Assembly: GCA_965203915.1 (NCBI GenBank) | Contig: OZ241918.1 | Span: 268,613-332,612, forward strand | Direction of reading: 5' to 3' | From: Alphaproteobacteria bacterium | Lineage (GTDB): Bacteria; Pseudomonadota; Alphaproteobacteria; JASGCL01 | DNA: 64,000 bases | Part shown: positions 2,341-52,848 of the stretch, piece after piece | Position numbering within the stretch: the first letter of the stretch is position 1 | Layout of the letters: each line of letters starts with the position of its first letter | Position numbers and translations under genes: made by a program | Notes under the pieces: generated by a model | The model's input: only the letters and a program-made list of their open reading frames with translations | Database searches by the model: none | What the model was told of the DNA's origin: nothing

Positions 2341-4020
2341 ATGAAGGTGGAAGAAGCAAGCATGACAGACGATAAACTCCCCCCCGATTCTGATATTACC
2401 TCAAAAAAATCAGTCGAAAAGCCCGATGGGACAAAGACACCCGAAGGTTCATCGTCCAGCGACGCTCCCCAACATAGCGGTAAAAATGCAAAAGGCAAGG
2501 GTAAGCAGGCTGGCGACACGGTTGATAAAAAAACCACCGATGTTAAAAATGCCGACGACAAAGATTCCAAAACCGATGATAAGCATGGTAGCGAGGCTGG
2601 CGAGGAAGCAACCCATGAAGCTGGCGATGATGTTAAAAAGATAAAGGCTATTTTATCCTGCTCCTTTTGCAGTAAGAAGCAACAGGATGTTCAAAAATTG
2701 ATAGCGGGACCTGGGGTTTATATTTGCAACGAATGTGTCGCCCTGTGCAATGACATTGTTGCCGAACAAAAACCGCAATTGCGTTCGGTGGATGGCGCGG
2801 GTTTTTCTGACCTGGTGGCCCTCACCCCGCAAAAAATTGCTGATTTCCTCAACCAATATATCATTGGTCAGGGTAAGGCCAAAACCATTTTGGCGGTGGC
2901 GGTTTACAACCATTACAAACGCCTGAAACATTTGGAACAATTAATCAGCAGCGGGGCTAAAAATAATAAATCATCCACAACCCCCGAATTGCAAAAATCA
3001 AATATCTTGCTGTTGGGCCCGACGGGCAGTGGTAAAACCCTGCTGGCGCAAACCCTGGCCAAATTGCTCGACGTGCCCTTTACCATTGCCGATGCCACCA
3101 CCCTGACCGAGGCTGGCTACGTGGGCGAGGATGTAGAAAATATTCTGGTCAGGTTGCTGCAAGCCGCCGATTACGACATGGCGCGGGCGGAGAAGGGGAT
3201 AGTCTATATCGATGAAATAGATAAAATCAGTCGCAAATCGGAACATCCATCCATCACCCGCGATGTTTCGGGCGAGGGGGTGCAGCAGGCTCTGCTCAAA
3301 ATTATTGAAGGCACCGTGGCGTCGGTCCCACCCCAAGGTGGGCGTAAGCACCCACAGCAAGATTTTTTAAAAATGGACACCAGCAATATTTTGTTTATTT
3401 GCGGTGGTTCCTTCGCGGGTATAGAAAAAATTATTGAGGCTCGCTCCACCAAGACCAGCATAGGTTTTCACGCCCAGCCGTTGGTGCGCGACAAAGACAT
3501 TGCCGACAGACACAATGAATTTTTGCAAAAGGTCGAGGCAGGGGATTTGATAAAATATGGGTTGATTCCCGAATTTGTTGGGCGGTTGCCCGTGGTGGCG
3601 GTGTTGCATGATTTGGATAAAAAAGCCTTGATAGAAATCCTCACCAAACCCAAAAATGCCCTGTTGCGGCAGTATCAAACATTGTTTGATTGGGATGGCG
3701 CGACATTGACCATGACCGATGAGGCGTTGGAAAAAATTGCCGACCTTGCCCTGAAGAAAAAAACGGGGGCGCGGGGTTTGCGATCTATCTTAGAAAGATT
3801 ATTAACCGACACCATGTTTCATTTGCCCAATTGGCAGCAGGCCGTGGTCGACGGTGGCAAAAAAGTTACCGAAGTTATTTTCAATGGCGAAACGGTGGAA
3901 TCCTTAAGCAAAGACATCATCGATGACAGCAAGGATAGCGAACAAAAAAACAATGACGCCATGAACAAGGCTGCTCGCCCGCTTATTATTTATGATAAGG
4001 GCGAAAAGAAGCCAGCTTAA
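2341..4020 (+). CDS. clpX: ATP-dependent Clp protease ATP-binding subunit ClpX, carrying a low-complexity N-terminal extension of about 100 aa that is rich in K, D, S and G.
   Basis: Zinc-finger motif [34 protein letters not shown], Walker [19 protein letters not shown], an IGF-like loop and the ClpX C-terminal domain. A typical ClpX is about 420 aa; this ORF is 559 aa. Confidence 0.9.
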
Positions 4021-4268
4021 AAAAAGACCCAAAAAACAAACGGCGGAATAACAACAAAAAACATAGTATTTTTATTTTTTGATGAGGGTGGCTTTATACC
4101 CCTTGTAATTTTTATATAGGATAACTATCTTAGGGTTGTTAAGGATGTGATACGGTGCTTGTTTGAGGCTTCTTTGGGCATGGTATTTGCAAATTAACAA
4201 AATGATAACCAAGTTAAGACAAATTATATTATAAAAAAAACGGAATAAAAATAATCAGGTATAAATAG

Positions 4269-6995
4269 ATGACCGATAGTTTAAACAACCCCAAAACCGC
4301 CGATTCGAGCGACCCCTTGGATAAAGGGATGCTGGCGATGAAGCGGCTTATCCCCGTTTTGCCATTGCGAAACCTGGTGGTGTTCCCTTCGATGGTGGTG
4401 CCGCTTTTTGTTGGGCGTGAAAAATCTATCGGCGCATTGGAAGAAGTGATGCGTTCTGACCGCGAAATTTTGTTACTAACCCAAAAGGCCGAGGATATCG
4501 AAGACCCCAAACCAGAAGAATTGTATGAAGTGGGAACATTGGGCAATGTGTTGCAATTGTTGCGCTTGCCCGACGGCACGGTGAAGGTTTTGGTCGAAGG
4601 CGGCAAACGGGTTAAAGTTAAAAAATTTTACCAGGGCGAACAATTTATATCGGCCGAGGTAAGCGAATTAAAAGAAGAAGTAAAAAATCAAGCCGAGATA
4701 ACGCCGCTGATGAAGGCGTTGGTCGAACAGTTCCAAGAATTTTTTCAATTGGGCAAACAAATGCCAAGCGAATTGGCTTCGTCGGTCGAGAAAATAACCG
4801 ACCCAGGAAAATTGGCCGATACGATTGCACAAAATTTAACCATCAAATTGTCTGAAAAACAGGCCTTGCTTGAAATGTTGGTGGTTGACCAAAGGTTAGA
4901 AAAAATATTGGGCTATTTGGAAGGCGAAATTTCGATGGTGCAGGTTGAGAAAAAAATTCGCAACCGCGTCAAACGCCAAATGGAAAAAACGCAACGCGAA
5001 TATTACCTTAATGAACAGATGAAGGCCATTCAAAAAGAATTGGGCTCGGGGGAGGAAGGCTCGCCCAAAAATGAAATAGAAGAATTGAAAGCCAAGGCAA
5101 AAAAATTAAAATTGCCCAAGGAAGCGCAAGAAAAATTTAATGCCGAATTAAAAAAATTATCCTTGATGGGTGCCATGTCGTCCGAGGCTACGGTGGTGCG
5201 CAATTACCTTGATTGGATACTCTCACTGCCCTGGCAAAACCCCAGCAAATTATTGACCAACCTTGACCAGGCCGAAAAAATCCTGAACGAAGACCATTAC
5301 GGTTTAGAAAAGGTTAAAGAACGTATCTTAGAATATTTATCGGTTCTGCAACGGGTAAAAAAAATGAAGGGGCCTATCCTTTGCTTGGTTGGGCCACCAG
5401 GGGTCGGCAAGACGTCGCTTGGTCAATCCATCGCCCGTGCCACCAATCGCCAATTCGTCCGTATGAGTTTGGGCGGGGTGCGGGATGAGGCCGAGATTCG
5501 CGGTCATCGCCGCACTTACATCGGTTCCTTGCCTGGGCGTATTTTGCAATCGATGAAGAAGGCAGGCACCAGCAACCCATTATTTTTATTAGACGAAATT
5601 GATAAATTGGGTGCCGATTGGCGCGGCGATCCCTCTTCGGCATTGTTGGAGGTTCTCGACCCCGAACAAAACAACCACTTCCATGACCATTATTTGGAAT
5701 TGGATTACGATTTGTCGCAAGTTATGTTTATTGCCACGGCGAACAGCCTGCGCATTCCGCCCGCCCTGTTGGACAGGATGGAGATTATTCGTTTGCCAGG
5801 TTATACCGAAGATGAAAAGGTTACGATTGCTGAAAAACATTTGATACCCAAAATCGCCAAGGACTATGGTTTTTACAATGGTGATGGCGATGAAGCCACC
5901 GATGCAAAATCGGGCAAAGCAAAGAACAATGCCAAATTGAGCGATGATGGTGCAGCCAAATTGGCGGGCGAACTTAAACTTGAAGATAAGGGCGAAGGTG
6001 GCACGGCGGATGCCGAGCTCGACCTGCTTGATGCTGACAAGGTTGAAGATAACAAACAAGATAATGAAAAAGCGGCCACCGCCAAACCCAAAGGCGTGAA
6101 GGGGCAAGAAGAATGGGTGGTGAAGGAAGATGCCGTGCGTGATTTGATAAGATACTACACGCGTGAAGCGGGGGTGCGTAATTTGGAACGCGAATTACAA
6201 AAATTGGCACGCAAAGCCATGCGCAAGATTCAACAAAACAAATTATCCAACATCGTTATCGATTCGCAATCGCTTGAGGATTATGCGGGCGTAAAACAAT
6301 TCCGTTTTGGTCTGGCCGAACAAAAAAGTTTGGTGGGGGTGGTGTCGGGCTTGGCCTGGACCGAGGTTGGCGGCGATATTTTGGTGATAGAATCTATTCT
6401 AAAACCAGGTAGCGGCAAGGTTAGCAAGACGGGTAACGTGGGCAAGGTCATGCAAGAATCGGTCGAGGCGGCAGAAAATTATATCAAATCGCGCGCCGCG
6501 TCCTTTGGCATTGACAAAAAAACCATGAGCAAAAATGACGTCCATGTGCACGTGCCCGAAGGGGCAACGCCCAAGGAAGGGCCATCGGCGGGTATTGCCA
6601 TGTTGACGTCGCTGGTTTCCAGCCTGACGGGCATTCCTGTGCGGCGCGACGTGGCGATGACGGGGGAGATAACCCTGCGCGGGCGGGTGTTGCCCATCGG
6701 CGGCTTGAAAGAAAAATTGTTGGCGGCGTTGCGCGGTGGCATTAAAACGGTGCTGATACCCAAAGAAAATGAAAAAGATTTGATAGAATTGCCGCAAGTA
6801 ATTAAGGACAATTTAAAAATCATTCCCGTGGAAACCGCGGACCAAGTTTTGGCCGAGGCCTTGACACAAAAAGTAACCCCCGTGGTATGGGATGATAAAG
6901 ATGAAGAGGTTGATAATAAAAAATCAGCTGGGCAATCCATAACCAAGGCGGTGGAAGAGGATGAAGAAAAATCGAAAGATATTATTCATCAATAA
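4269..6995 (+). CDS. lon: ATP-dependent protease Lon (908 aa), with a low-complexity insertion of about 80 aa between the AAA+ and protease domains and an acidic C-terminal tail.
   Basis: Lon N-terminal domain, Walker A GPPGVGKTSLGQSIA, protease-domain PKEGPSAGIAM with the catalytic Ser, and MTGEITLRGRVLPIGGLKEK. The insertion NGDGDEATDAKSGKAK...KGVKGQEEWVVKED is not present in canonical Lon. Confidence 0.92.
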   Translation: MTDSLNNPKTADSSDPLDKGMLAMKRLIPVLPLRNLVVFPSMVVPLFVGREKSIGALEEVMRSDREILLLTQKAEDIEDPKPEELYEVGTLGNVLQLLRLPDGTVKVLVEGGKRVKVKKFYQGEQFISAEVSELKEEVKNQAEITPLMKALVEQFQEFFQLGKQMPSELASSVEKITDPGKLADTIAQNLTIKLSEKQALLEMLVVDQRLEKILGYLEGEISMVQVEKKIRNRVKRQMEKTQREYYLNEQMKAIQKELGSGEEGSPKNEIEELKAKAKKLKLPKEAQEKFNAELKKLSLMGAMSSEATVVRNYLDWILSLPWQNPSKLLTNLDQAEKILNEDHYGLEKVKERILEYLSVLQRVKKMKGPILCLVGPPGVGKTSLGQSIARATNRQFVRMSLGGVRDEAEIRGHRRTYIGSLPGRILQSMKKAGTSNPLFLLDEIDKLGADWRGDPSSALLEVLDPEQNNHFHDHYLELDYDLSQVMFIATANSLRIPPALLDRMEIIRLPGYTEDEKVTIAEKHLIPKIAKDYGFYNGDGDEATDAKSGKAKNNAKLSDDGAAKLAGELKLEDKGEGGTADAELDLLDADKVEDNKQDNEKAATAKPKGVKGQEEWVVKEDAVRDLIRYYTREAGVRNLERELQKLARKAMRKIQQNKLSNIVIDSQSLEDYAGVKQFRFGLAEQKSLVGVVSGLAWTEVGGDILVIESILKPGSGKVSKTGNVGKVMQESVEAAENYIKSRAASFGIDKKTMSKNDVHVHVPEGATPKEGPSAGIAMLTSLVSSLTGIPVRRDVAMTGEITLRGRVLPIGGLKEKLLAALRGGIKTVLIPKENEKDLIELPQVIKDNLKIIPVETADQVLAEALTQKVTPVVWDDKDEEVDNKKSAGQSITKAVEEDEEKSKDIIHQ

Positions 6996-9890: not shown

Positions 9891-11555
9891 TTACATCATC
9901 GGCGGCGACGTGTCCTCTCCCTGCTTATTTTTATTGGCATCATCATCTCGCTTTGCGCGGGGGTTGTCGTGTCCCTTGCCAGCAAAAAAATTTCGCCACA
10001 GATCCTGTATATCGGTTATTATAGACAGATAAGAAATATTTTGCCATAGGCTATTATTAATATTTATCTTGCTTTGCAACCAATCCATGATTTGCTGCAT
10101 AATGTCTGTTAATATCCGTTTGCGTGATTGCTCGCTTTCCCTATGCCAATGTTGCAACAGATAAATTAATCGCGCCTGCGGTGTATAATTTTTTCTTAAC
10201 CAATTTTTCATGAATGGTTCTGACAATTGCCAAATATTCTTCTTGGTCGATAATTGGCGCGACAACCCTTCGGCCATCATGATTGTTTTATGCAAAAGCA
10301 AAAGGTGGGTGCGTGGCCGCATGCCAAATTGCCGAAGGATCTGAAACAAATGTGGCAAAAATTTTGCCAAGGATATTTCGCTGGTATTTTTTATCAACCA
10401 AATTTCACCAATACCGCGCAACGCCGAAACGAATTCTTGGTGGATGTGACTGTTGTTTTTGTCGTTCGGCAACAAACCTATCTTTTCATGGGCGCGCGCC
10501 ACCTTTTCATAATCTCTTTCTAAAAAACCTGACATGGCTTCGGCCAAAAAAAATTGATAATCACGGTTGATACGCCCCATGATGCCGAAATCTATCGGAA
10601 TAATCTGCCCCGTTTTGGTAAAAAACAAATTACCAGGGTGCAGGTCGGCATGAAAAAAACCATCGCGAAAAACCTGTAAGAAAAAAACGTCTGAGGCTAT
10701 GGCCAATAATTTTTCTTTATCCAAATTGTAACGTTTAAAACTTGCCTCATCATCCAAACGGAAACCATCAACCCATTCCAAGGTTAGAACATTTTCTGAT
10801 ACCCCTTGCCAAAAAATCTGTGGCACATAAAATTTTTCGTGAATATCATTGCTGGTATATTCTTTATAATTTTCTTGCGCTTGAAAATTATCGCGCAATT
10901 CGGCGGCCGACGATGCTTCGTTTCTTAGGTTTAATTCTTTGGCGGTTATATCTTCGAACGTTTTAACCATCGACGCAACATTTATCAATTTTGCGAAGGA
11001 AGAAAATTTTTCTATCCATTCTGCAAAATTTTTTAAACGTCTGACATCGCGCAAAAACAATTGCCTAATACGTGGGCGCAGTATTTTAACCGCCACCTTC
11101 CTGCCTAAAAACTCGGCACTATAAACCCCCGCGATGGAGGCCGCGGCTATCGGCTGGCTGTTAAAACTGGTGAACATGGTTTCGACGGGCATGCCAAAAT
11201 CTTGTTTGATAGTCCTTTTGACATGGGCGAAGGAGAAGGCAGGCAACCTATCTTGTAAACTAGCCAGGGCGAGGGCGACATCGTGCCCGACAACATCGGC
11301 GCGCAAAGAAAGCCCCTGGCCAAATTTGATAGCAATCGGCCCAAGGGCGAGCAGGGCGCGATTCAAATTTTCGCCGCGGTCATGGCGCAAGCGAAAAAAA
11401 ATCGATAGCGGAAAAAACACCACCACCAGCCCATGGTAAAGGATAGGTTTTAAAAAAGGGCGAAACACCCACAAGGAATCAAACAAGCCAAAGACAAAAA
11501 TAATTTTGCCCAGGAAACCAATGGCGTCGAGCAACGAAAAGAATTTTCTTATCAT
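9891..11555 (-). CDS. ubiB: Ubiquinone biosynthesis protein kinase UbiB (ABC1/ADCK family), with a K/D-rich C-terminal tail.
   Basis: N-terminus LALGPIAIKFGQGLSLRADVVGHDV, AASIAGVYSAEF, and the kinase-like HADLHPGNLFF with IPIDFGIMG. Confidence 0.88.
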   Translation of the reverse strand: MIRKFFSLLDAIGFLGKIIFVFGLFDSLWVFRPFLKPILYHGLVVVFFPLSIFFRLRHDRGENLNRALLALGPIAIKFGQGLSLRADVVGHDVALALASLQDRLPAFSFAHVKRTIKQDFGMPVETMFTSFNSQPIAAASIAGVYSAEFLGRKVAVKILRPRIRQLFLRDVRRLKNFAEWIEKFSSFAKLINVASMVKTFEDITAKELNLRNEASSAAELRDNFQAQENYKEYTSNDIHEKFYVPQIFWQGVSENVLTLEWVDGFRLDDEASFKRYNLDKEKLLAIASDVFFLQVFRDGFFHADLHPGNLFFTKTGQIIPIDFGIMGRINRDYQFFLAEAMSGFLERDYEKVARAHEKIGLLPNDKNNSHIHQEFVSALRGIGEIWLIKNTSEISLAKFLPHLFQILRQFGMRPRTHLLLLHKTIMMAEGLSRQLSTKKNIWQLSEPFMKNWLRKNYTPQARLIYLLQHWHRESEQSRKRILTDIMQQIMDWLQSKININNSLWQNISYLSIITDIQDLWRNFFAGKGHDNPRAKRDDDANKNKQGEDTSPPMM

Positions 11556-13009
11556 ATTTTTTTTATGGTTTGGGTGGTTAACAGCGGCGCCAGCAGGTCC
11601 CTAGCATAACAGCCGCGGTCGCGAAATATAAACCATGGCTTCAAATCAAGCAACGGCTGCAAAACAAAGGCGCGTTCAAAAGCCAAGGCATGGGGAATGG
11701 TAAGGTTATCGGACGCAAGGGTTTGTTCGCCATAGGCAATAATATCCAAATCTATCGGGCGGGGTTGGTTGCGGGCGGTGGTTTCCTCCCGACCCAAAGA
11801 TTTTTCTATGGTTTTTAATTCGGCGAGCAATTGATGGGGTTCTTGCGGCCCATGATATAGCAACGCGCCGTTTAAAAAATCCTGTTGGTCTTGGTTATAT
11901 TGCGGCGCGGTTTGATAAAGCGGTGATATTTTTTGCACCTTACCAATTTTATTCAAGGCGGCAACGGCGCGCCGAATATTTTTTTTCCTATCGCCCATGT
12001 TGCTACCCACCGCAATAATATAGTCAGGTTTTTTTGTAAATTGCAGTGCGCCGATGATGTTGGCCATGTCAAAGTTGGCGGCTATATCGTGAACGCGGAT
12101 GATGGCACCAATATTTTTTTGGAACAATCTTTTATGGGTTATATGTTGCAGGGCGGCGGTTTGCAACGCAACGCCGCCCATCACCCGCTCGCCAACTTTG
12201 CGCCCCAACAATTTGCCGATAAAACTCTTGCGGCTTAATCCCAATAACAACGGCACGCCAAATTTTTTATAATCGGCCATATGATTGATAAGGTAGAGCG
12301 AATCCTCGATTGATTTGCCAAAACCAAAACCAACATCCAAAACAATCTTGCTTTTGGGTAAGCCCGCCGCGGTAAATGTTTTTATCGCGTGGCGAAAAAA
12401 ATTATTAATATCCTGTAAATTTTTTGACCGTGGTTGCCCCTGGTAACTATGGCCCAACTGATTATTTTTTTCTACCAACATCTTGTCGGCGGCATTGTGC
12501 ATAACGATGTAGGCTAAAAGTTTTTCTTTATATTGCTTCAACACCGTCAACATTTCTTTGTCGCGTTCAAGGTTCCGCCCAAACCCAACATCATTAATAA
12601 TGGTGGCGCCCATCGCCAACATGGTGGCGGCGACCGCGGGTTTTTGCGTGTCAACACTGATGGGCAGGGATGGAAAATTTTTTGTGATAATTTTTACAAT
12701 GGGCATAAGCCGCGCTATTTCTTCTTCCATCGCCACGGGGGTTGCCCCTGGGCGCGTGCTTTCGGCCCCGACATCGATAATATCCATACCCTGACGCAAA
12801 TTATCGGTGATAATTTTTACCATCATGCCTTCATTCCACTGATGGCTGGTGGGTTTATTGATGATGGGCGACGTAATATTTTTTTCGGCGGGCATGGGTG
12901 TGGTTAGGTTCTTAACAACGCCATCGCCCGAAAAACTGTCGGGCGTAGCATTAAGGATAGCCATCACCAAAGGGCGTTGTTGGGTAGACAATAATTGTTG
13001 CAAGGTCAT
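11552..13009 (-). CDS. folP: Bifunctional dihydropteroate synthase (N-terminal) / 6-hydroxymethyl-7,8-dihydropterin pyrophosphokinase (C-terminal) fusion (FolP-FolK).
   Basis: The N-terminal half has ILNATPDSFSGDG, IIDVGAESTRPGA, ISVDTQKP, VLDVGFGFGKS and RVHDI (DHPS). The C-terminal half has IIAVGSNMGDR, PIDLDIIAYG and a FVLQPL-type HPPK signature. A 4-bp overlap with ubiB indicates one operon. Confidence 0.85.
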   Translation of the reverse strand: MTLQQLLSTQQRPLVMAILNATPDSFSGDGVVKNLTTPMPAEKNITSPIINKPTSHQWNEGMMVKIITDNLRQGMDIIDVGAESTRPGATPVAMEEEIARLMPIVKIITKNFPSLPISVDTQKPAVAATMLAMGATIINDVGFGRNLERDKEMLTVLKQYKEKLLAYIVMHNAADKMLVEKNNQLGHSYQGQPRSKNLQDINNFFRHAIKTFTAAGLPKSKIVLDVGFGFGKSIEDSLYLINHMADYKKFGVPLLLGLSRKSFIGKLLGRKVGERVMGGVALQTAALQHITHKRLFQKNIGAIIRVHDIAANFDMANIIGALQFTKKPDYIIAVGSNMGDRKKNIRRAVAALNKIGKVQKISPLYQTAPQYNQDQQDFLNGALLYHGPQEPHQLLAELKTIEKSLGREETTARNQPRPIDLDIIAYGEQTLASDNLTIPHALAFERAFVLQPLLDLKPWFIFRDRGCYARDLLAPLLTTQTIKKI

Positions 13010-19239: not shown

Positions 19240-19758
19240 ATGACCGATAAAAAATTACCCGCCGAAGCATCACCACCATCATCGCCCCAGTTGTCGCATG
19301 TAACCCCAAGCGGGAAGGCGGCGATGGTCGACGTATCGCAAAAACCCGAAACCGCCCGCATGGCGCGCGCCATGGCACGGGTGGTGATGAAACCCGAAAC
19401 CATTATCGCCATCAAAAATAATAATATAAAAAAGGGCGATGTTTTAACCGTTGCCAAATTGGCGGGCATCAACGGTGCCAAAAAAACATTCGACCTTATT
19501 CCATTGTGCCACCCTTTGGCTTTATCCTACATCGATGTTGATGCAATAATTGACGGCGACCAAGCGGTGGTGATTACCGCCATAACCAAAACATTTGGCC
19601 GCACGGGGGTAGAGATGGAGGCCATGACCGCGGTTAGCGTGGCCGCCCTCACCCTTTACGACATGGTAAAAGCCATCGACAAAACCGCCACCATCACCGA
19701 CATAAAATTGTTGGAAAAATCGGGCGGCAAGTCGGGGCATTCATTATATGAGCCCTAA
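19240..19758 (+). CDS. moaC: Cyclic pyranopterin monophosphate synthase MoaC.
   Basis: LSHVTPSGKAAMVDVSQKPETAR...KGDVLTVAKLAGINGAKKTFDLIPLCHPL...GVEMEAMTAVSVAALTLYDM. Confidence 0.9.
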   Translation: MTDKKLPAEASPPSSPQLSHVTPSGKAAMVDVSQKPETARMARAMARVVMKPETIIAIKNNNIKKGDVLTVAKLAGINGAKKTFDLIPLCHPLALSYIDVDAIIDGDQAVVITAITKTFGRTGVEMEAMTAVSVAALTLYDMVKAIDKTATITDIKLLEKSGGKSGHSLYEP

Positions 19759-19885: not shown

Positions 19886-19940
19886 TTCGGGGGTAATTAT
19901 TTTATTGCTATCCTAGGACGAATCTTTTTATGGTTGGGGA

Positions 19941-27664: not shown

Positions 27665-27701
27665 TCAAAAAATAAACTTTTTTGTTAATCAAAAAAACGA
27701 A

Positions 27702-32305: not shown

Positions 32306-33415
32306 TTATTTTTTCCCCCTTGTCGATGTTGTCGATGTTTTTTTGGATTTTTTATTCTTACTCTTCGCGCCCGACAGCCCTGTATTACTTTGCATCATCT
32401 CGGTGCTTTCTTTACGTTCGCGGCGCGCGTTTAATAATTCAGACCAACTAATTGACAACAAGCCATTGGGTAAAAATAACATCAGCGATATCATCATGGT
32501 GGCGTAGATAAACAATTGATAATCACCCATGACCGACAACCAATCCCATGCAAAATAAAGCGCGCTGGCCCCGATGATGGGACCAAACACATTGCCCAAA
32601 CCACCCACGAAGCAATAGAGCATGAAATCAACCGAATCCTTCACCACGAAGGCGGAGGGAGAAATGGATTGCAAATGAGCAATGAATATCGCCCCGCCAA
32701 CCCCGCCAAGGAATGACGAAATAGCATAAGAAATAAGGCGGAGGCGCGCCACATCAACCCCGATGGAACTTGCCAATTCTTCGTTTTGCTGTAACGACCG
32801 CGACAAAATGCCTTGGCGCGAATGCACCAAGCGATACATCAATAAAATAGCAATAAGCAGCACGATAACCGCCAAATAATAAAACCCAACCTTAACATCG
32901 GGCAGGGTGGCAAAATCAGGAAACAATGTCACACCAAAAATGGTAAGGGCACTGGGGGTGGGCAAACCCGTGATGCCTTGCGATGAACCGGTAAAACGCT
33001 GCATGGTTTGCGATAAAGCCAACAGGGTGGTGACCTGGGTCAGGGTGAGGGACACCATGGCAAAATAAACCCCGCGCAAACGCAAAATGGGAAAGCCAAT
33101 CAGCAGGCTGATAAAACTGGCGCCCAAACCCGCAAGGGGTAGCGATGCCCAAAAGGAAAAACCCATTTTCGAAACACAATAGGCCGAAATGTAACCGCCC
33201 ATCAAGGCAAATGCCCCTTGGCCAATATTGATACGCCCCATGTAAAAAGTCAACCACACGCCCAGGCTGATAAAACTAAGCAAGGCAATATCTATCAAAT
33301 TGCCCATGACATACCAATTTTTGTCGGCAATCAAAATACTGGGAACGACGAACAAAAACAAAACCACCGTCACAAGGAAGGTAATAAATTTTACATTAAA
33401 AAATATTTTTTTCAT
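32306..33415 (-). CDS. Branched-chain amino acid-type ABC permease, LivM-like, with a K/S/T-rich C-terminal tail.
   Basis: Multi-TM permease; the tail reads KESTEMMQSNTGLSGAKSKNKKSKKTSTTSTRGKK. Confidence 0.8.
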   Translation of the reverse strand: MKKIFFNVKFITFLVTVVLFLFVVPSILIADKNWYVMGNLIDIALLSFISLGVWLTFYMGRINIGQGAFALMGGYISAYCVSKMGFSFWASLPLAGLGASFISLLIGFPILRLRGVYFAMVSLTLTQVTTLLALSQTMQRFTGSSQGITGLPTPSALTIFGVTLFPDFATLPDVKVGFYYLAVIVLLIAILLMYRLVHSRQGILSRSLQQNEELASSIGVDVARLRLISYAISSFLGGVGGAIFIAHLQSISPSAFVVKDSVDFMLYCFVGGLGNVFGPIIGASALYFAWDWLSVMGDYQLFIYATMMISLMLFLPNGLLSISWSELLNARRERKESTEMMQSNTGLSGAKSKNKKSKKTSTTSTRGKK

Positions 33416-36431: not shown

Positions 36432-39014
36432 ATGGGTAGTCGCCGCGCCCGTTTGTTGGGGTTATCTTTGTTGCATAGTTTGATAAACCCGCAAGGCGGA
36501 TGGCATGTTGTTAATGGTTTGTTTATAGGTGCCGCAAGCGTGGCGGCGGTGGCGGGCATGATGGCGAGCGAGGCCCATGCCCAAATTGGTGCGCCCGCTG
36601 TGCAAAAACCAGCCATTGACTCCATTCAACCTAATGCGCAACCCAAAAAAGACGATAAAGGCCAGGGTGCGCCGTCAACCCTTCCCATGGGGACGCAAAA
36701 TGTTGCCCCGCCAAGTTTTGGTAACGATGGCGCGCGTAATAATCAAAACACCACGGGCAATATCATCAAAACCGTTCGCGTTCTTGGGGCGCAAAAAATA
36801 GAACCCGCAACCGTGCTGGCTTATTTACCATTTAAAATCGGCGACCGTTGGTCGGATACGCTTGGCAATGATGCGTTGCGTATCCTTAATAACACAGGGT
36901 TGTTTGCTTTGATAACCTTGGAAGAAAACAATGGCGTGGTGACGGTAAAAATTATGGAAAGCCCCGTGATTGACGAAGTTGCCTTCGAAGGTAACAGCGA
37001 AGTGGAAGATAAAGATTTTTTGATGGTGTTGGCGCAGAACAGCAACATCAAACGCCGCGCCATTTATTCGCGCGCCGCGGTGAAAAAGGCGGTTAATATT
37101 ATCCAGCAAGTTTATTTGCAACGCGGTTTTTTCCAAGCCAATGTGTCGCCCAAATTAATAGATATTGGCAACAACCGCGTGCAATTGGTTTTTGAAATCA
37201 ATGAAGGCAGGGCACCAAGGGTTGGCGCGTTTGAATTTTATGGCAACAATAGTTTTTCTGATGGAGCATTGCGCAACAATTTGCTTTCAAGCGTTTATAA
37301 CCCCTTGCGTTTTTTCAGCACCACCGACCGTTATGACCCCAACCGTATCAAGACTGACCAAGATAACTTGCTACGTTTTTATCGCGAAAATGGCTTTGTT
37401 GATGCCGCGGTGACATCCGCCACCACGCAATTAAATAAATCGCGCGAAGATTTCACCATCACCTATTCTATCAAAGAAGGGCCACGTTATCGGGTGGATA
37501 AGATAAACCTAACCAGCAACATCAAACGCATACCGATTGATAAAATGAAAAGTTATATCGCGGTGCGCAAGGGAAATTATTATAAAATATCTTCGGTCGA
37601 AAAAACCGAACGCGATATTGTTCAGGCGTTGCGCGATGATTATAATTACCCATTCATGAGGGTGGTAACCAAAACCGTCACCCACCCCGACACCCAAACG
37701 GTCGATGTATCGTTTGAAGTAGTCCAGGGGCAAAGGCAATATATCAACCGCATTGTTATTCAGGGTAATGGTCGAACGTTGGATAGTATTATTAGGCGCA
37801 AATTATCATTCGCGGAGGGCGACCCGTTGGATGAAGATGCCGTGCGCCGCGGTTTCCAAGCCATTCAAAATACTGGATATTTTAGCAGTGTTGAGCCAAA
37901 ATTGGTCCCCGTGCCTGGCCGCCCCGATAGGGTTGATGTTATCTTGAAGGTGCAGGAAACCTCCACGGGTGCGCTTAATTTCAGCGCGGGTTATTCGACA
38001 AAGGATGGGATTATTTTCGGCGTGACCTTTGGTGAAAATAATTTGCTGGGCACGGCGCGGATATTAAATATCTCGGGACAATTTGCCATTCCTATTACCT
38101 CGGGACAGGGTAAAACCTTTGGACAATCTTACACCATTGCCTACACCGAACCATTTTTGGCGGATAAAGACCTGGCGATGACGACCAGCCTTTATCGCAC
38201 CGTTAACACCAACACCGCCAACTTACTTACGCAAACCCGCACGGGGGGTTCGGTTGGTTTCCGCTTCAATTATAATCGCTACTTCTCGCAATATTTTTAT
38301 TATAATATTTATTATAATCAATTAAGGAACGCGGCGGGCGGTTCGAATGCTGAAGGCAATTTTTTAAACTCTATATTTGGTCAACAGATATCTTATGATA
38401 CGCGCGACAACCCCAACAACCCGCGGTCGGGGTTGTATGCTACCTTTGGCAATGACTTGGCGGGGCTTGGCGGCGACATTTATTACCTGCGCACTTCGGC
38501 CACGGCGGCGGGTTACATGCCTATTGCTATCGGTTTGACCAACGACCCTGTTTTGGCGGTTGGTATCGATGCGGGTTATATTTTCCCCTTTAATAGCAAA
38601 ACAGTTTCGGTTGCCGACCGTTTTTACCTTGGCGGGCAAAACCTACGCGGGTTCCAAGACAATGCCGCAGGCCCCAGCTACACGGGCTTTAATGCCGCGG
38701 GCAATACCGCCCGGGTTTTCGTTGGTGGACGGCAATATTTCACACAAAGCACCGAATTGCGCATCCCGATAGATTTCCTATCCGACCTTGGTGCTAAATT
38801 TATTGTTTTTAATGACATTGGTATTTTGTCCTTGCCCGATGAAAAGGGTTTGGCTGGTATTGCCGACGACGGTGGGTTGCGGGCTTCTTGGGGTCTTGGC
38901 GGCAGTTTTATCACCCCCATTGGTCCTATCGTTATTTCTTGGGCATTTCCTTATAAAAAAGGTCCGAGCGACGTTGTGCAAAATTTCCGTATAGATTTCA
39001 AAAGTAAATTCTAA
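36432..39014 (+). CDS. bamA: Outer membrane protein assembly factor BamA (Omp85). Start set at the internal Met; the N-terminus carries a Gly/Asn/Gln-rich low-complexity segment.
   Basis: POTRA repeats (IIKTVRVLGAQKIEPATVLAYLPFKIGDRW, INRIVIQGNGRTLDSIIRRKL) and a C-terminal 16-strand barrel ending ...RIDFKSKF. Confidence 0.85.
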   Translation: MGSRRARLLGLSLLHSLINPQGGWHVVNGLFIGAASVAAVAGMMASEAHAQIGAPAVQKPAIDSIQPNAQPKKDDKGQGAPSTLPMGTQNVAPPSFGNDGARNNQNTTGNIIKTVRVLGAQKIEPATVLAYLPFKIGDRWSDTLGNDALRILNNTGLFALITLEENNGVVTVKIMESPVIDEVAFEGNSEVEDKDFLMVLAQNSNIKRRAIYSRAAVKKAVNIIQQVYLQRGFFQANVSPKLIDIGNNRVQLVFEINEGRAPRVGAFEFYGNNSFSDGALRNNLLSSVYNPLRFFSTTDRYDPNRIKTDQDNLLRFYRENGFVDAAVTSATTQLNKSREDFTITYSIKEGPRYRVDKINLTSNIKRIPIDKMKSYIAVRKGNYYKISSVEKTERDIVQALRDDYNYPFMRVVTKTVTHPDTQTVDVSFEVVQGQRQYINRIVIQGNGRTLDSIIRRKLSFAEGDPLDEDAVRRGFQAIQNTGYFSSVEPKLVPVPGRPDRVDVILKVQETSTGALNFSAGYSTKDGIIFGVTFGENNLLGTARILNISGQFAIPITSGQGKTFGQSYTIAYTEPFLADKDLAMTTSLYRTVNTNTANLLTQTRTGGSVGFRFNYNRYFSQYFYYNIYYNQLRNAAGGSNAEGNFLNSIFGQQISYDTRDNPNNPRSGLYATFGNDLAGLGGDIYYLRTSATAAGYMPIAIGLTNDPVLAVGIDAGYIFPFNSKTVSVADRFYLGGQNLRGFQDNAAGPSYTGFNAAGNTARVFVGGRQYFTQSTELRIPIDFLSDLGAKFIVFNDIGILSLPDEKGLAGIADDGGLRASWGLGGSFITPIGPIVISWAFPYKKGPSDVVQNFRIDFKSKF

Positions 39015-39087: not shown

Positions 39088-41505
39088 ATGAGCGCCGATA
39101 AAAAATCACCCGATAAAAAAATGCGCGACGCCAGCGGTCATAACCCCGCTCACAATCCTGCTTATAACCATGGGCGCGGGCAAGCGGTGGAGGGCGACAT
39201 GGACGCGCCCAAAAATGCCACCGAACAATTACGGATGGAGGCCATAGCCTATCACAAGCAAAAACCAGCGGGAAAATTGCGGGTGGTGGCGTCGAAACCA
39301 TTGAACAGCCAGCGCGATCTGTCCTTGGCCTATTCGCCAGGGGTCGCCGCCGCTTGCGAGGAAATTGTGAAAGATCCCCTGAATGTTTCTGACATGACGG
39401 CGCGTGGTAATTTGGTGGCGGTTATATCGAACGGCACGGCGGTGTTGGGTTTGGGCGATATTGGCCCCCTGGCCAGCAAACCCGTGATGGAGGGGAAGGC
39501 GGTGTTGTTTAAAAAATTTGCCGACCTTGATGTTTTTGATATTGAGATAGAAGAGAAAGACCCAGAAAAATTAATCACAATTATCAAAAGCCTAGAGCCA
39601 ACATTTGGCGGCATCAACCTGGAGGATATCAAGGCCCCCGAATGTTTTGTTATCGAACAACGGTTAAAAAAGGAAATGAAAATTCCGGTGTTCCATGACG
39701 ACCAACATGGCACCGCCATCATCGCGGGGGCGGCGATAAAAAATGGTCTGGAAGTAATGAAGAAAGATATAGGGTCGGTGAAAATTGTGGCGTCGGGCGC
39801 GGGGGCGGCGGCGTTATCTTGTTTGCATTTTTTGATAAGCCTGGGGGCGAAGAAAGAAAATATTTGGGTATGCGATAAAGAAGGTTTGGTTTGGGCGGGG
39901 CGTAACAAGGGGATGGATGAGTTCAAACAACAATTTGCCCGCGCCGATGTGAAGGAAGATAGAAACTTGGCATCGGTTATCAAGGACGCCGATATTTTCT
40001 TGGGGTTGTCTTCAGGCAAGGTGGTAACGGGCGATATGGTGAAATCGATGGCGAAAAACCCGATGATATTGGCGTTGGCCAATCCCGAACCCGAAATTCG
40101 CCCCGAAGAAATAGAAAAAGTTCGCCAAGACGCCATTATCTGCACGGGGCGGTCGGATTATCCCAACCAGGTCAATAATGTTCTCTGTTTTCCATTTTTG
40201 TTTCGCGGCGCGTTGGATGTTGGGGCGACAGAAATTAACGAACCCATGAAGCAAGCCGCGTCGATGGCCATTGCCGAATTGGCCAAGCAAGCGGTCGAAG
40301 AAAAAACATTACGCGCCTATGGCTTGACCGAATTATCTTTCGGTAAAAATTATATCATTCCCAAACCGTTGGATGAGAGGTTGATTGTTGCGGTTTCGTC
40401 GGCAGTGGCGGAGGCGGCCATGAAGACGGGCGTTGCGACCCGCCCCATCGCCGACATAAAACAATATCGCGAACAATTGGCGGGCATGACCACCCGCACC
40501 CACCAAATTATGCGCCCCATCAATGTTGCGGCACGCCAGTCGGACAAGCGGATAGTTTACGCCGAGGGGGAAAACCCACGGATATTATCCGCCCTGCCGA
40601 TTATTATTCAAGAAAATTTTGCGCGCCCGATATTGGTGGGCCGCCCCAAGGTGATAGAAGATCGGATCAAAAAATTAAATTTGAATTTAACCTTGGGCAA
40701 AGACGTAGAGATTTGCGACCCCGAGCAAGACGATAGGTTCCATGCCTATTGGACGGAATATCATCAGCATTTGGGGCGGTCAGGCGTGTCGCCCGAATAT
40801 GCCAAAACGATGGTGCGGACGTCGAACACCGTTATTGGGTCGTTGATGGTTAAACGCGGCGAAGCCGATGGTTTGATATGCGGCACCATTGGGGTTTTTC
40901 ATCGCCATTTAAAACATGTTCGCAATATTTTGGGGGTGAATGAAAAATACAAAGACATGCACAGTCTTTATATGTTGGTGCTGGAAACATTTGGTCAACC
41001 CACCCTGCCGCTGTTTTTTACCGACACCCATGTTTCGCACAACCCATGCGAAGAGGAATTGGAAGAAATGACATTGATGGCGACCGATGTGATGAAATTG
41101 TTTGGCATAACGCCAAAGGTTGCGTTGCTTTCCCATTCTAACTTTGGTTCGTCTGAATCGGATTCGGCGAAAAAAATGCGCCGTGCGGTGGCGCGTTTGA
41201 AAAAATCTTGCCAATTTGAGGTCGAGGGCGAAATGCACCCCGACACCGCGCTTGATGAAACCATTCGCGCCAATTTTTTGATGGATAATCGATTAAAGGG
41301 CGCGGCGAATTTGATGGTTTTCCCCAACCTGGATGCTGCCAATATTTGCTACAACATGGTGAAGATGGTGGCGGCCGAGGGGATTTCGACAGGACCAATT
41401 TTGATGGGTTGTAACCATGTGGCGCATATCATGACGCCCGCCGCCACCACCCGCGGCATCATCAACATGACGGCCTTCACCGCCGCCGAAGCGGCCAACC
41501 GCTAG
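39088..41505 (+). CDS. maeB: NADP-dependent malic enzyme (malic enzyme + phosphotransacetylase-like domain; MaeB type). The stop codon lies inside a palindromic repeat element.
   Basis: Malic enzyme motifs (VISNGTAVLGLGDIGPLASKPVMEGK, VASGAGAAALSC) followed by the PTA-like C-terminal half; 805 aa. Confidence 0.88.
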   Translation: MSADKKSPDKKMRDASGHNPAHNPAYNHGRGQAVEGDMDAPKNATEQLRMEAIAYHKQKPAGKLRVVASKPLNSQRDLSLAYSPGVAAACEEIVKDPLNVSDMTARGNLVAVISNGTAVLGLGDIGPLASKPVMEGKAVLFKKFADLDVFDIEIEEKDPEKLITIIKSLEPTFGGINLEDIKAPECFVIEQRLKKEMKIPVFHDDQHGTAIIAGAAIKNGLEVMKKDIGSVKIVASGAGAAALSCLHFLISLGAKKENIWVCDKEGLVWAGRNKGMDEFKQQFARADVKEDRNLASVIKDADIFLGLSSGKVVTGDMVKSMAKNPMILALANPEPEIRPEEIEKVRQDAIICTGRSDYPNQVNNVLCFPFLFRGALDVGATEINEPMKQAASMAIAELAKQAVEEKTLRAYGLTELSFGKNYIIPKPLDERLIVAVSSAVAEAAMKTGVATRPIADIKQYREQLAGMTTRTHQIMRPINVAARQSDKRIVYAEGENPRILSALPIIIQENFARPILVGRPKVIEDRIKKLNLNLTLGKDVEICDPEQDDRFHAYWTEYHQHLGRSGVSPEYAKTMVRTSNTVIGSLMVKRGEADGLICGTIGVFHRHLKHVRNILGVNEKYKDMHSLYMLVLETFGQPTLPLFFTDTHVSHNPCEEELEEMTLMATDVMKLFGITPKVALLSHSNFGSSESDSAKKMRRAVARLKKSCQFEVEGEMHPDTALDETIRANFLMDNRLKGAANLMVFPNLDAANICYNMVKMVAAEGISTGPILMGCNHVAHIMTPAATTRGIINMTAFTAAEAANR

Positions 41506-47726: not shown

Positions 47727-50398
47727 GTTTTCTTTTCTAATTCCTCTAGCACATTTTTGGCGCGCGCCACCACCGTGGCGGGCACGCCCGCCATGGCGGC
47801 AACTTGAATACCATAAGAATGGTTGGCTTGGCCTGCTATCAATTCATGAAAAAATACCAATTTTTTATCCCATTCTTCAACCTTCATCGTGAAGCAATCC
47901 ATCGCGGATAGGCTCGCCGCCAATTTGGTCAATTCGTGATAATGGGTTGCGAACAGGGTGCGGGCCGCAATTTGATTATGCAAATATTCGGTGATGGCGA
48001 TGGCCAAAGACAACCCGTCAAAGGTGGCGGTGCCACGACCAATTTCATCCATAATGATTAACGATTCCGCGGTGGCATTTTGTAAAATATTGGCGGTTTC
48101 CAACATCTCAATCATGAATGTCGATTGCCCCCGCGCCAAATCATCGGCCGCGCCAACCCGTGAAAAAATTTTATCCACCACCGATATAACGGCCTCATCG
48201 GCGGGAACATAAAAACCCGATTGCGCCATGATAACAACAATCGCCACCATACGTAAAAAAGTACTCTTACCCGCCATGTTGGGGGCGGTTAGCAACATAA
48301 AAAATTTGTCACTATCCAAAGAAACATCATTGGCGGTAAAATGCTCGGCCGATGCCGACAATGCTTGCTCGACCACGGGGTGGCGCGCACGTCGCAATAA
48401 TAATTTTTTGTCGCCCGCCGCAGTGATGGTTGGCCTGACAAAATGTTGTTCGCGCGCAATACGCCCCATGGTTTGGTTAAGGTCAATCACCGCCAACAAA
48501 TCAGACAACAACAACAACGGCGCATGTTGCGCCATCACGCTGGCGACCAATTCATCAAAAATTTGCACCTCCACCGCTACGGCATGGTTCGCGCCCCGTT
48601 CAATATCACCGCCCAGGGTGATTAATGCCGCGCTGTTATAACGCACCAAGGCTGATAAGGTTTGGCGATGTTGAAAAATACTATGGGCGGTCATTTTATC
48701 GGCATGGCGCGCAGAAACCTCGATATAAAAACCCCAAATATTATTTTGTTTTATTTTCAAATTATCAATATGGGTCAATTGCCGATATGTATGTTCCAGC
48801 AAATTCAATTGCCGCCATTTTTCTTTTTGCCCCGTGGTAATATCATCAAGGTCAGCCCGAAAGCCAGGACGGATAAAACCCCCATGCCGCGCCAAAAGGG
48901 GCAGGTTGTCATGAAGCAAAGCATTGCCAAGCAGTTGGCTTAAAGGGGCAACATCGAGAAATTTGTCAACCAGCATGACGATAGGATGTTGCGGGTTGGC
49001 GGCTGACCCGTCGGGCAAAAATTTTCGCAATGTTTTTTTGATGGCAGGGATTTTTTCCAAAACCTGGGCAATGGCCGCCAAATCGCGTGGCCCGCCCTTC
49101 TTTGCCGACAGGCGCGATAAAGCCCGCGACAGGTCAGGCATGGCGGTAAGCAAGCCGCGCAATTCTTCGCTTATAGTTTTGTTGTCGACAAAAAATTGCA
49201 ACCCATCAAGCCGCCCATTGATTTTGGTAATATTTTTTAATGGCTGTTGCAAACGACTGCGCAATAACCGTGCCCCCGCCGCCGTTTCGGTTTGGTCCAA
49301 CAGGGCAAGCAAGCACCCTTCGCGCCCGCCGCGGTGGCTGTTGCTTAAAATATCCAGCGATTGGAAACTCGCCCTATCGATACTCATGTTATCAGATTGG
49401 TCTATTTTTTTGGGTGGTAATAATTTGGGCAAGGCATTGATTTGCGTGCGCTTGAGGTAAGATAAAAGCCCGCCCAAGGCCGACAATTCATCAGACGAAA
49501 AATCACCAAAGCCTTCCAAACTTTTTACCTGGAATTGCTCCTGCAATATTTGCACGCCGCGTTGTTTGTTAAATACCGTGATGGATTCGGGGGTAATTTT
49601 TTCGTAAAAATCGCGCAATTCGCTGGCGACCGTTTCATCTTTTAACAAAACATCGGGGGTTAGAATTTCGGCGGGTGATATTCTGCCGATAAAATTGCTC
49701 AACGCGCTTAGGGGCATAACCTCCACCGCAAGGAATCCCGTCGACACATCGGCGATGGCAACCGCCAATTTTTTCTCATTGTTGTTTTTTATGGCGGGGT
49801 TGTTGCTTGCAGGGCTCGAACTTGCGAAGGTCAGGGCAGGAGAGAGGGCTAATAAAAAATTATGTTGTTTTTCGGGCAACAAATTTTGTTCAACCACCGT
49901 GCCGCGGGTGATGATACGCACCACCTGGCGCGTCATCAAATTTTTGCCTGGTGCCTTGGCGGGGGTTTGCTGCATATCGCCCACTTGTTCGCTTGCTTGT
50001 TCGCTCACCTGCTCGGCCAGGGCAATTTTTTTGCCCATGGTGATAAGTTTGGCAATGTAATTATCGGCGGCATGGTGCGGCACACCGCACATCGGAATAT
50101 CTTTATCGCCCTGTTTACCGCGCCGCGTCAGGGTAAGGTTTAACAATTGCGCGGCCTCCACCGCGTCTTCAAAAAACAATTCATAAAAATCGCCGAGGCG
50201 AAAAAATAATAGGCTGTCAGGATGTTGGTCCTTCAATGACCGATATTGCGCCATCAGCGGGGTAAGGGTCGCATCGCTCAAGTTGCCAACCTTGCCATCA
50301 ACCTGCCCATCGCTTGGGCCAGGGGCTTGATTGTCAGAATGCACGTTCGCACCATCAAGCTCAGACAAAAGGTCGGGTGGGGTAGGCTTTGAATTCAT
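47723..50398 (-). CDS. mutS: DNA mismatch repair protein MutS.
   Basis: TPLMAQYRSLK N-terminus, mismatch-binding domain, Walker A LTAPNMAGKSTFLR, DEIGRGTATFDG, HTH C-terminus. Confidence 0.93.
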   Translation of the reverse strand: MNSKPTPPDLLSELDGANVHSDNQAPGPSDGQVDGKVGNLSDATLTPLMAQYRSLKDQHPDSLLFFRLGDFYELFFEDAVEAAQLLNLTLTRRGKQGDKDIPMCGVPHHAADNYIAKLITMGKKIALAEQVSEQASEQVGDMQQTPAKAPGKNLMTRQVVRIITRGTVVEQNLLPEKQHNFLLALSPALTFASSSPASNNPAIKNNNEKKLAVAIADVSTGFLAVEVMPLSALSNFIGRISPAEILTPDVLLKDETVASELRDFYEKITPESITVFNKQRGVQILQEQFQVKSLEGFGDFSSDELSALGGLLSYLKRTQINALPKLLPPKKIDQSDNMSIDRASFQSLDILSNSHRGGREGCLLALLDQTETAAGARLLRSRLQQPLKNITKINGRLDGLQFFVDNKTISEELRGLLTAMPDLSRALSRLSAKKGGPRDLAAIAQVLEKIPAIKKTLRKFLPDGSAANPQHPIVMLVDKFLDVAPLSQLLGNALLHDNLPLLARHGGFIRPGFRADLDDITTGQKEKWRQLNLLEHTYRQLTHIDNLKIKQNNIWGFYIEVSARHADKMTAHSIFQHRQTLSALVRYNSAALITLGGDIERGANHAVAVEVQIFDELVASVMAQHAPLLLLSDLLAVIDLNQTMGRIAREQHFVRPTITAAGDKKLLLRRARHPVVEQALSASAEHFTANDVSLDSDKFFMLLTAPNMAGKSTFLRMVAIVVIMAQSGFYVPADEAVISVVDKIFSRVGAADDLARGQSTFMIEMLETANILQNATAESLIIMDEIGRGTATFDGLSLAIAITEYLHNQIAARTLFATHYHELTKLAASLSAMDCFTMKVEEWDKKLVFFHELIAGQANHSYGIQVAAMAGVPATVVARAKNVLEELEKKT

Positions 50399-52171: not shown

Positions 52172-52206
52172 TAAAACGCGCTAAGAAAGATACAACGATT
52201 GGCAAC

Positions 52207-52830: not shown

Positions 52831-52848
52831 TTTCAAGAAAAAAAAATC

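Follow-up and report, generated by a model that had tools for sequence, protein, structure and literature searches.

How do two conserved bacterial proteases come to carry nearly a hundred residues of apparently disordered sequence, and does this reflect a general lengthening of the proteins in their genome? These questions are raised by clpX and lon in a 64,000-nucleotide stretch of DNA (hereafter the window) from an uncultured alphaproteobacterium of GTDB lineage JASGCL01 (GenBank assembly GCA_965203915.1, contig OZ241918.1, positions 268,613 to 332,612 of the forward strand). An original prediction, made from the sequence, described a K/D/S/G-rich tail of about 100 residues ahead of the ClpX zinc finger, an insertion of about 80 residues in Lon, and charged tails or inserts in several other proteins. 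Together these were taken to indicate a pervasive expansion of protein length, unusual for a compact bacterial chromosome. The analysis presented here bears out the ClpX and Lon segments as real, far in excess of chance, and translated. On balance, we favour the view that they are lineage-specific, near-neutral and slippage-driven disordered expansions at permissive sites, confined to a narrow clade.

Predicted disordered segments in ClpX and Lon

Positions 2341-6995 of the window hold two genes on the plus strand, clpX followed by lon. The ClpX protein matches the NCBIfam equivalog profiles NF003745 (613 bits; cutoff 359) and TIGR00382 (597 bits; cutoff 371) and contains the Pfam domains zf-C4_ClpX, AAA_2 and ClpB_D2-small. 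Its Walker A and Walker B motifs, GYVG pore-1 loop, RKH loop and IGF ClpP-docking loop (TSIGFHAQ) are present and all align with those of Escherichia coli ClpX. The Lon protein matches NF008053 (1040 bits; cutoff 891) and contains the domains LON_substr_bdg, AAA, Lon_lid and Lon_C. The Walker A and B motifs and the Ser-Lys dyad of Lon were likewise found by alignment to the E. coli protein (GPPGVGKTS, LFLLDEIDK, PKEGPSAGIAM, GGLKEKLLAA).

The longest open reading frame (ORF) of clpX spans 2341-4020 on the plus strand (559 codons). The zinc-finger domain starts at residue 104-106 of this ORF as opposed to residue 12-13 in E. coli, and comparison with NF003745 gives an overhang of 92 extra residues at the N-terminus, about 21 internally and about 21 at the C-terminus. 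The four cysteines of the zinc finger (Cys107, 110, 129 and 132) are invariant in 54 aligned sequences. From M8, the first cysteine is reached after 99 residues. In ClpX from 80 control proteobacterial loci (the listed matches of a ClpX scan over genome contigs, none of them a close relative of the window), the corresponding leader measures 9-20 residues, with a median of 14. These control leaders are themselves polar, for example MSKVSGSDSKNTLY. In an exhaustive HMMER search of 1.84 billion representative sequences, the zinc finger lay at residues 3-20 in nearly all of those among the best 150 that aligned from the zinc finger onward. The ClpX of the window therefore departs from the typical architecture, in which the zinc finger lies within about 20 residues of the N-terminus, an architecture that is not a functional requirement. 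Many other representatives among the best 150, 500-900 residues long, gave matches that began no earlier than the AAA+ module, far from the N-terminus. These may include mitochondrial CLPX proteins, whose extensions include targeting peptides.

Could translation simply begin downstream of the tail? The likely start of clpX is the ATG at 2362 (M8), because a 96%-identical relative begins at the residue equivalent to M8 (MTDDKLPPD) and because a AAGGTGGA motif lies 11 nt upstream of this ATG. The first seven codons of the ORF (MKVEEAS) are thus probably not translated. Between codon 8, itself an ATG, and codon 110 no further in-frame ATG, GTG or TTG occurs, a run of 102 codons ahead of the zinc finger. 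A ClpX bearing the zinc finger therefore cannot be made without the tail, and the downstream start that had been raised as an objection is excluded. AlphaFold2, given the 54-sequence alignment, folds the zinc finger and the AAA+ module of ClpX, but it assigns residues 1-100 no secondary structure and a predicted local distance difference test score (pLDDT) of about 30. A degenerate (cryptic) 12-nt repeat of 2.9 copies is found in the tail at 2596-2630.

In Lon, the E. coli protein aligns to residues 28-531 and 615-867, and the break falls between E. coli residues 512 and 520 at residues 531 and 615 of the query. The 79 residues of the insertion, YNGDGDEATDAKSGK...KPKGVKGQE, have no counterpart in E. 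coli. No such insertion was found in about 65 clpX-adjacent lon genes of diverse Proteobacteria, for all of which tblastn alignments break at the identical place. The site lies in a loop of the AAA+ small subdomain (lid) that joins the first lid helix to the beta-strand after it. In the AlphaFold2 model the insertion (pLDDT 27-31) lies between a helix at 514-532 and a strand at 616-618, and residues 539-611 lack secondary structure. To judge from known Lon structures, this loop would face outward in the hexamer. Since the insertion is internal to an intact ORF, an alternative downstream start could not remove it. Across both segments, pLDDT values of 27-37, the absence of modelled helices and strands and a low content of hydrophobic residues all point to predicted disorder.

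Distribution and evolution among relatives

A few uncultured relatives, which form a small clade, carry segments at the same sites; these differ in length and have next to no sequence in common. The clade comprises the 96%-identical relative (a 525-kb contig; loci L081 and L089), the metagenome-assembled genomes (MAGs) GCA_051010635.1 and GCA_030054115.1, and contigs from ENA and Logan; the 'Hydrotalea' label on GCA_030054115.1 is suspected to be a mislabel. The ClpX tail is present in all six clade members (77-97 residues), and the Lon insert is present in five (45-82 residues) at the identical site. Beyond composition, neither can be aligned. By alignment, the Lon insert is absent from P0246 (80% identity, 811 residues) and from P0247 (71% identity, a 1.7-Mb relative), and it therefore arose within a sub-clade. 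Sister lineages have shorter versions of the segments or none. The possibility that such insertions are typical of all relatives, and hence not unusual, holds for this small, narrow clade and not beyond it.

Outside the clade, a ClpX of a distant lineage (P0443; 46% identity, 512 residues) has its own K/S/T/A/D-rich tail of about 105 residues before the zinc finger. This tail shares no sequence with that of the window and, given also the distance of the lineage, represents an independent gain. Another ClpX (P0398) has a tail of about 30 residues. Judged from these sequences, ClpX tails are rare but recurrent. Two further ClpX proteins (P0404 and P0459) have extensions of 75-100 residues that are not low-complexity. 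A literature search on ClpX N-terminal extensions returned nothing relevant on bacterial tails.

Both proteins show smaller length gains as well. In ClpX, a polar insertion of about 27 residues near the C-terminus occurs in five of the six clade members (not in P0006) and in none of the three outgroups of the alignment, and a loop of the AAA+ large subdomain varies in length (Table 1). In Lon, an N-terminal extension of about 22 residues (M[ST]D..NP...) is common to P0243 and P0244, shorter in P0246 and absent from the outgroups. It has a pLDDT below 50 and five differences from L081 at residues 4-18, and the Lon start may be M21 or M24 instead of M1. The acidic C-terminal tail of Lon, which had been listed among the unusual features, is of similar length in other alphaproteobacterial Lon proteins, with only about 8 residues extra here.

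How do the segments evolve? The window was compared with the 96%-identical relative, at a synonymous divergence (dS) of about 0.2. The ratio of nonsynonymous to synonymous divergence (dN/dS) reaches 0.67 in the ClpX tail, which is statistically indistinguishable from 1 (p 0.33); the ClpX core, at 0.016, differs from the tail with high significance (p 1e-9). The Lon insert has a dN/dS of 0.17, a value that rests on six substitutions, and the Lon core one of 0.05. In a set of 22 orthologous pairs, the amino-acid differences are concentrated in low-complexity patches (binomial p 2e-3 to 2e-14); in ClpX, 15 of 21 differences fall in the tail. The five indels seen in these pairs are all in-frame and inside patches of this kind: two in the Lon insert (GD and A) and one each in BamA (ITG), MaeB (PA) and MutS (VSNIQ). 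The reading frame has been kept in the six ClpX and five Lon orthologues of the clade despite saturated synonymous sites (dS >1). In the 96%-identical relative, lon is split by a frameshift into ORFs of 828 and 88 residues (L081 14383-14400), and livK in L089 is split too. As that contig is a long-read assembly at about 7x coverage, these splits are probably sequencing errors and not pseudogenes.

The composition of the segments is more constant than their sequence. Hydrophobic residues make up 9-19% of the clade's tails and inserts as opposed to 31-34% of the cores; in the window the values are 9% for the ClpX tail, 13% for the Lon insert and 33% for the ClpX core. This content is about half of that expected from the segments' own base composition, which indicates that composition is constrained though sequence is not. 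The G+C content of the segments equals that of their host genes (0.47-0.49), G+C at third codon positions is slightly lower, and the coding strand is 61-64% purine. A foreign origin of the ClpX and Lon segments was considered and ruled out on the basis of this equal G+C content.

Origin and possible function

In the reading we favour, the segments would have originated by replication slippage or short duplication of purine-rich codons. In ClpX, the site of expansion would be the short polar leader found ahead of the zinc finger in every ClpX protein, and in Lon a surface loop of the AAA+ lid that is likely to be structurally permissive. Once present, the segments would drift near-neutrally in sequence and length, with selection mainly keeping the frame open and the segments hydrophilic. 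An open frame is obligatory because essential domains lie downstream. Their contribution to catalysis by either protease would probably be slight or nil, and smaller segments in FolP, BamA, MutS and LivM may be of the same kind. Migration of the start codon was discarded as a source of the ClpX tail, since the extreme N-terminus is still like an ordinary ClpX leader; it may apply to MaeB. Slippage-driven low-complexity regions have been described as widespread and transient in prokaryotic proteins, including ancestral ones (Persi, Wolf, Karamycheva, Makarova and Koonin, PNAS 2023, PMC10120016). The regions described there expand and contract by short repeats inside coding genes, evolve fast and can touch ancestral housekeeping functions too, which fits the in-frame indels and hypervariability seen in this clade. 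That study is a genome-wide statistical description and is not known to treat ClpX, Lon or this clade. Repeat structure in the segments as they now stand is weak, limited to the one degenerate 12-nt array.

Several observations weigh against this reading. Both AAA+ proteases of one operon have gained segments, which could exceed coincidence, and the segments persist at the same sites across a clade in which synonymous sites are saturated. At least compositional selection acts on them, which could reflect function. The dN/dS of the Lon insert lies well below 1, on its six substitutions only. In addition, five of the six clade members have kept the opening ten or so residues of the ClpX tail (M-[ST]-D-D-x-x-P-[PS]-D). 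Finally, the independent tail of P0443 hints at a recurrent advantage, or merely at recurrent tolerance.

Could the segments then be functional disordered modules kept by selection? This alternative is possible, and we hold it to be considerably less probable than near-neutral expansion. The ClpX tail lies beside the zinc finger that docks adaptors and substrates, and could gate or tether either. The insert in the Lon lid could alter the binding of DNA or polyphosphate, or the recruitment of partners, at the side of the ring, and either segment could act as a solubility-enhancing entropic bristle. The alternative gains from most of the points just listed, namely from the fixed sites in every sampled ClpX of the clade and in the Lon sub-clade, the polyampholyte and hydrophobic-poor composition kept despite sequence turnover, the N-terminal motif of the ClpX tail, the Lon dN/dS and the gain in P0443. 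Against it stand the dN/dS of the ClpX tail, which cannot be distinguished from 1, lengths that vary by 20-80 residues among sequences that cannot be aligned, and a Lon at 80% identity that manages without the insert. Retention of the frame follows from the essential domains that lie beyond the segments. Both the extreme N-terminus of the tail (M-S/T-D-D) and its junction with the zinc finger (KK.K..L.CSFC) resemble ordinary leaders such as MSDDNFSRG...LLYCSFC, so the conserved N-terminal residues may be a remnant of the ancestral leader and need not be a new motif.

The closest known parallel bears on both sides of this question. In the yeast mitochondrial Lon protease PIM1, a charged insertion of about 50 residues (residues ~840-898) gives no density in cryo-electron microscopy (cryo-EM) (Yang et al., J Biol Chem 2022, PMC8913295; PDB 7SXO). 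The authors speculate on a role in partner recruitment or an effect on DNA binding, but ATP-dependent degradation of casein in vitro remained intact when the insertion was deleted or replaced by Gly-Ser (PMC8913295), which makes it dispensable under those conditions. As in PIM1, the window's Lon has a charged, low-complexity insertion in the 50-80-residue range in the AAA+ lid of a LonA protein, lineage-specific and flanked by conserved secondary structure. Disorder is indicated in PIM1 by the missing density and in the window's Lon by prediction (pLDDT ~30). The insertion of PIM1 differs in lying after the last lid helix (...RKAALQVVKKL), in being S/K/E/N-rich as opposed to K/D/A/G/E-rich and mitochondrial as opposed to bacterial, and in its independent origin. 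In PIM1, the position equivalent to the window's site is ...SAKKSAGLENSHVDM..., which lies about 45 residues upstream of where the insertion of that protein sits. Identity of the two sites was considered and rejected: a PIM1 fragment matched PDB 7sxo at 100% identity and placed the insertion elsewhere. The two insertions are thus analogues in neighbouring loops of the same subdomain, and not homologues.

A stronger form of the functional proposal would make the segments a selected adaptation of the clade, the flexible ClpX arm altering which substrates or adaptors gain access to the zinc finger and the Lon insert altering association with the nucleoid or polyphosphate. Tails on ClpX of unrelated lineages, such as P0443, would then point to a recurrent and undescribed tuning of bacterial proteolysis. 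We regard this as unlikely.

The two weakest alternatives are, on the sequence, excluded for ClpX and Lon. That the segments are annotation artefacts absent from the proteins is very improbable: a downstream start would cost ClpX its zinc finger, the Lon, FolP and UbiH segments are internal, and frame and start motif are kept in relatives with saturated synonymous sites, even though such an artefact holds or probably holds for TrpC (M25), the first 41 codons of BamA, MaeB (M38), Gmk, YchF, TpiA, LivH and the first seven codons of ClpX itself. Just as improbable is an origin as in-frame mobile or dispersed DNA elements, comparable to Rickettsia palindromic elements or to the dispersed mosaic repeat family of the window, two copies of which lie in-frame in mfd: within the 64 kb, no repeat of 25 nt or longer, whether direct or inverted, ties the ClpX tail and the Lon insert to each other or either of them to any other place, the G+C content is that of the host genes, and the segments of relatives, with their different lengths and unalignable sequences, are unlike copies of an element. 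Rickettsia palindromic elements are reportedly inserted in-frame in protein-coding genes. They resemble the present segments in adding a peptide to conserved essential proteins, at tolerated surface positions, in a small-genome alphaproteobacterium. They differ in being copies of repeated palindromic DNA, whereas the ClpX and Lon segments have no repeated counterpart in the window. The mfd repeats are the closer analogue.

The wider genome and the meaning of the segments

Is the genome as a whole expanded? When 30 proteins of the window were scored against NCBIfam profiles, most matched over their full length. Genuine gains of 30 residues or more were found for ClpX, Lon, Mfd (through its repeat elements), BamA, MutS, FolP and LivM, and possibly for allantoicase, where 33 residues overhang the profile and the start is ambiguous, so that the extension is a candidate. 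A census of hydrophobic-poor segments alone was confounded by G+C content, with high-GC controls scoring higher, partly through spurious ORFs, and was replaced by one of polar, hydrophobic-poor segments of at least 30 residues, binned by G+C. By this crude criterion, with controls biased toward genes near clpX, such segments occur in 5 of 36 window ORFs (1.9% of residues) and in 103 of 903 control ORFs (Fisher p 0.55-0.6); in the control bins the share of ORFs ranges over 8-12% and that of residues over 1.0-1.4%. The controls often bear polar tails, for example on ORFs of 460-480 residues upstream of clpX that are putatively trigger factor. A mild lineage trend to longer proteins exists, the window's proteins being about 3% longer than those of the sister MAG over 12 orthologues. 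The terms 'pervasive' and 'unusual for a compact chromosome' are not upheld by these comparisons, and the census does not set the window apart from the control loci. What stands of the expansion claim is that several housekeeping proteins of the lineage (ClpX, Lon, FolP, BamA, MutS and LivM) carry hypervariable segments of low complexity, which is supported by the clustering of differences and of all five indels in such segments.

Table 1. Coordinates in the window of clpX, lon and the protein segments discussed (residues are numbered from the start of the ORF).
Feature	Coordinates	Strand	Residues	Basis or remark
clpX coding sequence	2362..4020	+	552 aa	from probable start (ORF residue M8) to stop
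ClpX disordered N-terminal tail	2362..2649	+	8-103	96 aa; K/D/S/G/T-rich polyampholyte; 18 K+R, 22 D+E
ClpX C4 zinc-binding domain	2650..2769	+	104-143	Pfam PF06689 at residues 106-142
ClpX variable loop, AAA+ large subdomain	2932..2988	+	198-216	~8 aa longer than E. coli; relatives P0005 ~30 and P0006 ~65 extra residues
ClpX polar insertion near C-terminus	3898..3978	+	520-546	just before conserved C-terminal end
lon (LonA) coding sequence	4269..6995	+	908 aa	
Lon polar N-terminal extension	4269..4337	+	1-23	upstream of conserved MKRLIPVLPLR
Lon charged disordered insertion	5874..6110	+	536-614	79 aa; 13 K+R, 20 D+E; E. coli alignment gap, AlphaFold2
Lon acidic C-terminal tail	6891..6992	+	875-908	low pLDDT
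FolP hypervariable insertion	12836..12913	-	33-58 of FolP-FolK fusion	26 aa; orthologue comparison
LivM C-terminal tail	32309..32431	-	329-369	41 aa; K/S/T-rich; polar-segment detection
BamA polar linker, signal region to POTRA1	36582..36761	+	92-151	~60 aa; profile alignment
MaeB disputed N-terminal extension	39088..39198	+	37 codons	probably upstream of real start, ATG 39199
MutS polar N-terminal extension	50270..50398	-	1-43	NF003810 position 1 aligns to residue 45

Differences from the 96%-identical relative also gather in the segments of several other proteins. The FolP insertion is present in the window and in L081 and absent from the more distant L084 and L088, and residues 34-63 account for about 20 of the 50 differences from L081. 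In the window, folP and folK are fused in one 485-residue ORF (11552-13009, minus strand); the fusion measures 455-485 residues in relatives, where folB lies divergently upstream. The predicted polar C-terminal tail of LivM was found (the Pfam domain BPD_transp_2 ends at residue 310 of 369), with 6 of 13 differences from L089 at residues 323-359. MutS has three hypervariable patches relative to L089, at residues 4-37, 137-144 (with a 5-residue indel) and 188-197. For BamA, the predicted N-terminal extension is real in so far as there is a long signal region and a polar linker, the latter shorter in L087; the first 41 ORF codons lie upstream of the probable start, M42. Counted from M42, position 2 of TIGR03303 aligns to residue 111, and the first 118 residues hold 18 of 34 differences from L089 together with a 3-residue indel. 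In UbiH, the Gly-rich segment was confirmed as an internal insert of about 20 residues.

Other predicted extensions fared less well. UbiB shows no net gain over NF003404, with 57 residues after the match as opposed to 56 in the profile. The N-terminal extension of TrpC is an artefact of calling the longest ORF from a TTG, as position 1 of the profile falls at M25, though about 20 residues are inserted internally. In MaeB, the predicted extension is probably also an artefact: M38 has a GGAGG Shine-Dalgarno sequence 5 nt upstream, relatives at 81-87% identity start there, and position 4 of the profile aligns to residue 45. Ambiguity comes from the 96%-identical relative, which has CTG at the M38 codon (L089 ~10106-10108), an ORF open from M1 and an in-frame 6-nt indel, all of which speak against a start at M38. 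The difference between ATG and CTG may reflect an assembly error, the use of CTG as a rare start codon or a start in the course of moving upstream. Gmk, YchF, TpiA and LivH also have real starts that make them shorter than their longest ORFs. The window thus shows longest-ORF calling creating false N-terminal extensions (TrpC, BamA, Gmk and probably MaeB) beside real ones.

The repeats in mfd (22197-26237, minus strand), which the original prediction had grouped with the ClpX and Lon segments, share no sequence with them and represent a different phenomenon, a dispersed DNA repeat family. This mosaic family consists of two modules, CCCTAnCGCTGACGCTACTTGAGGGC and CTTGCTAGGCTTCGCCTAGAACCAGACTTTACAGCTTCTAGGCTTG, and occurs at 19737-19900, 22640-22790, 24880-24960, 41502-41590, 45369-45395, 56390-56433 and 56683-56716. 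The two in-frame copies in mfd encode ...SLEAVKSGSRRSLAS..., and the other copies are intergenic. The family is not called palindromic here, because one mfd copy folded as single-stranded DNA had no stability above that of shuffled sequence (z = -0.05). Inverted-repeat arms inside clpX and lon (2822-2861, 3357-3381, 3790-3816, 4554-4586, 4682-4707, 5572-5622 and 6712-6737), with 70-84% matches, lie outside the segments and look like chance.

Further repeats and accessory genes are found elsewhere in the window. A 457-bp unit is repeated 3.2 times at 99% identity at 27174-28624, in an AT-rich stretch (G+C 35-39%), with degenerate copies to about 29430; each unit contains a perfect hairpin, AAGGCATCTGTTT-AGAAA-AACAGATGCCTT, that is terminator-like in look. 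Between trpE and an aminotransferase gene, an intergenic 61-bp tandem duplication (56584-56706, 96% identity) overlaps a 34-nt inverted repeat at one of its arms; the second arm lies at 41502-41535. At 19941-21639, an ORF with an FRG domain overlaps that of a TPR protein in which a 102-nt unit recurs 6.8 times. At 45525-46472, tpiA and a gene for a pyrimidine 5'-nucleotidase flank an Abi_2 (abortive-infection-like) gene, which the 96%-identical relative has as well. The FRG-domain, TPR and Abi_2 genes are likely accessory genes among housekeeping genes.

The clpX and lon genes are followed by trxA, trxB and an HU-family gene, and the order clpX-lon-trxA is kept in the clade wherever the contig runs beyond clpX. 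The usual tig-clpP-clpX-lon cluster is split here: tig and clpP lie at 50798-52830, 48 kb from clpX-lon, and are followed 3' by a ppiD-like gene (SurA_N and rotamase domains) and not by clpX (block 50798-54528). Upstream of clpX lies a divergent gene whose version in relatives encodes a molybdopterin/4Fe-4S oxidoreductase of about 950 residues, putatively formate-dehydrogenase-like; the clpX-lon context is kept across the clade.

What do these segments mean for ClpX and Lon? Few bacterial machines are as conserved or as well studied as these two proteases, whose architecture tends to be regarded as fixed. On the neutral reading that we favour, the presence of the segments has little wider significance. 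The permissive sites mapped here would be useful for tagging or engineering. The clade also offers a natural length series (0, 45, 62-69 and 79-82 residues in Lon; 77-97 residues in ClpX) with which neutral and regulatory explanations may be told apart. To conclude, this clade shows that the leader of ClpX and one lid loop of Lon are each able to absorb 80-100 disordered residues in a free-standing bacterial genome.

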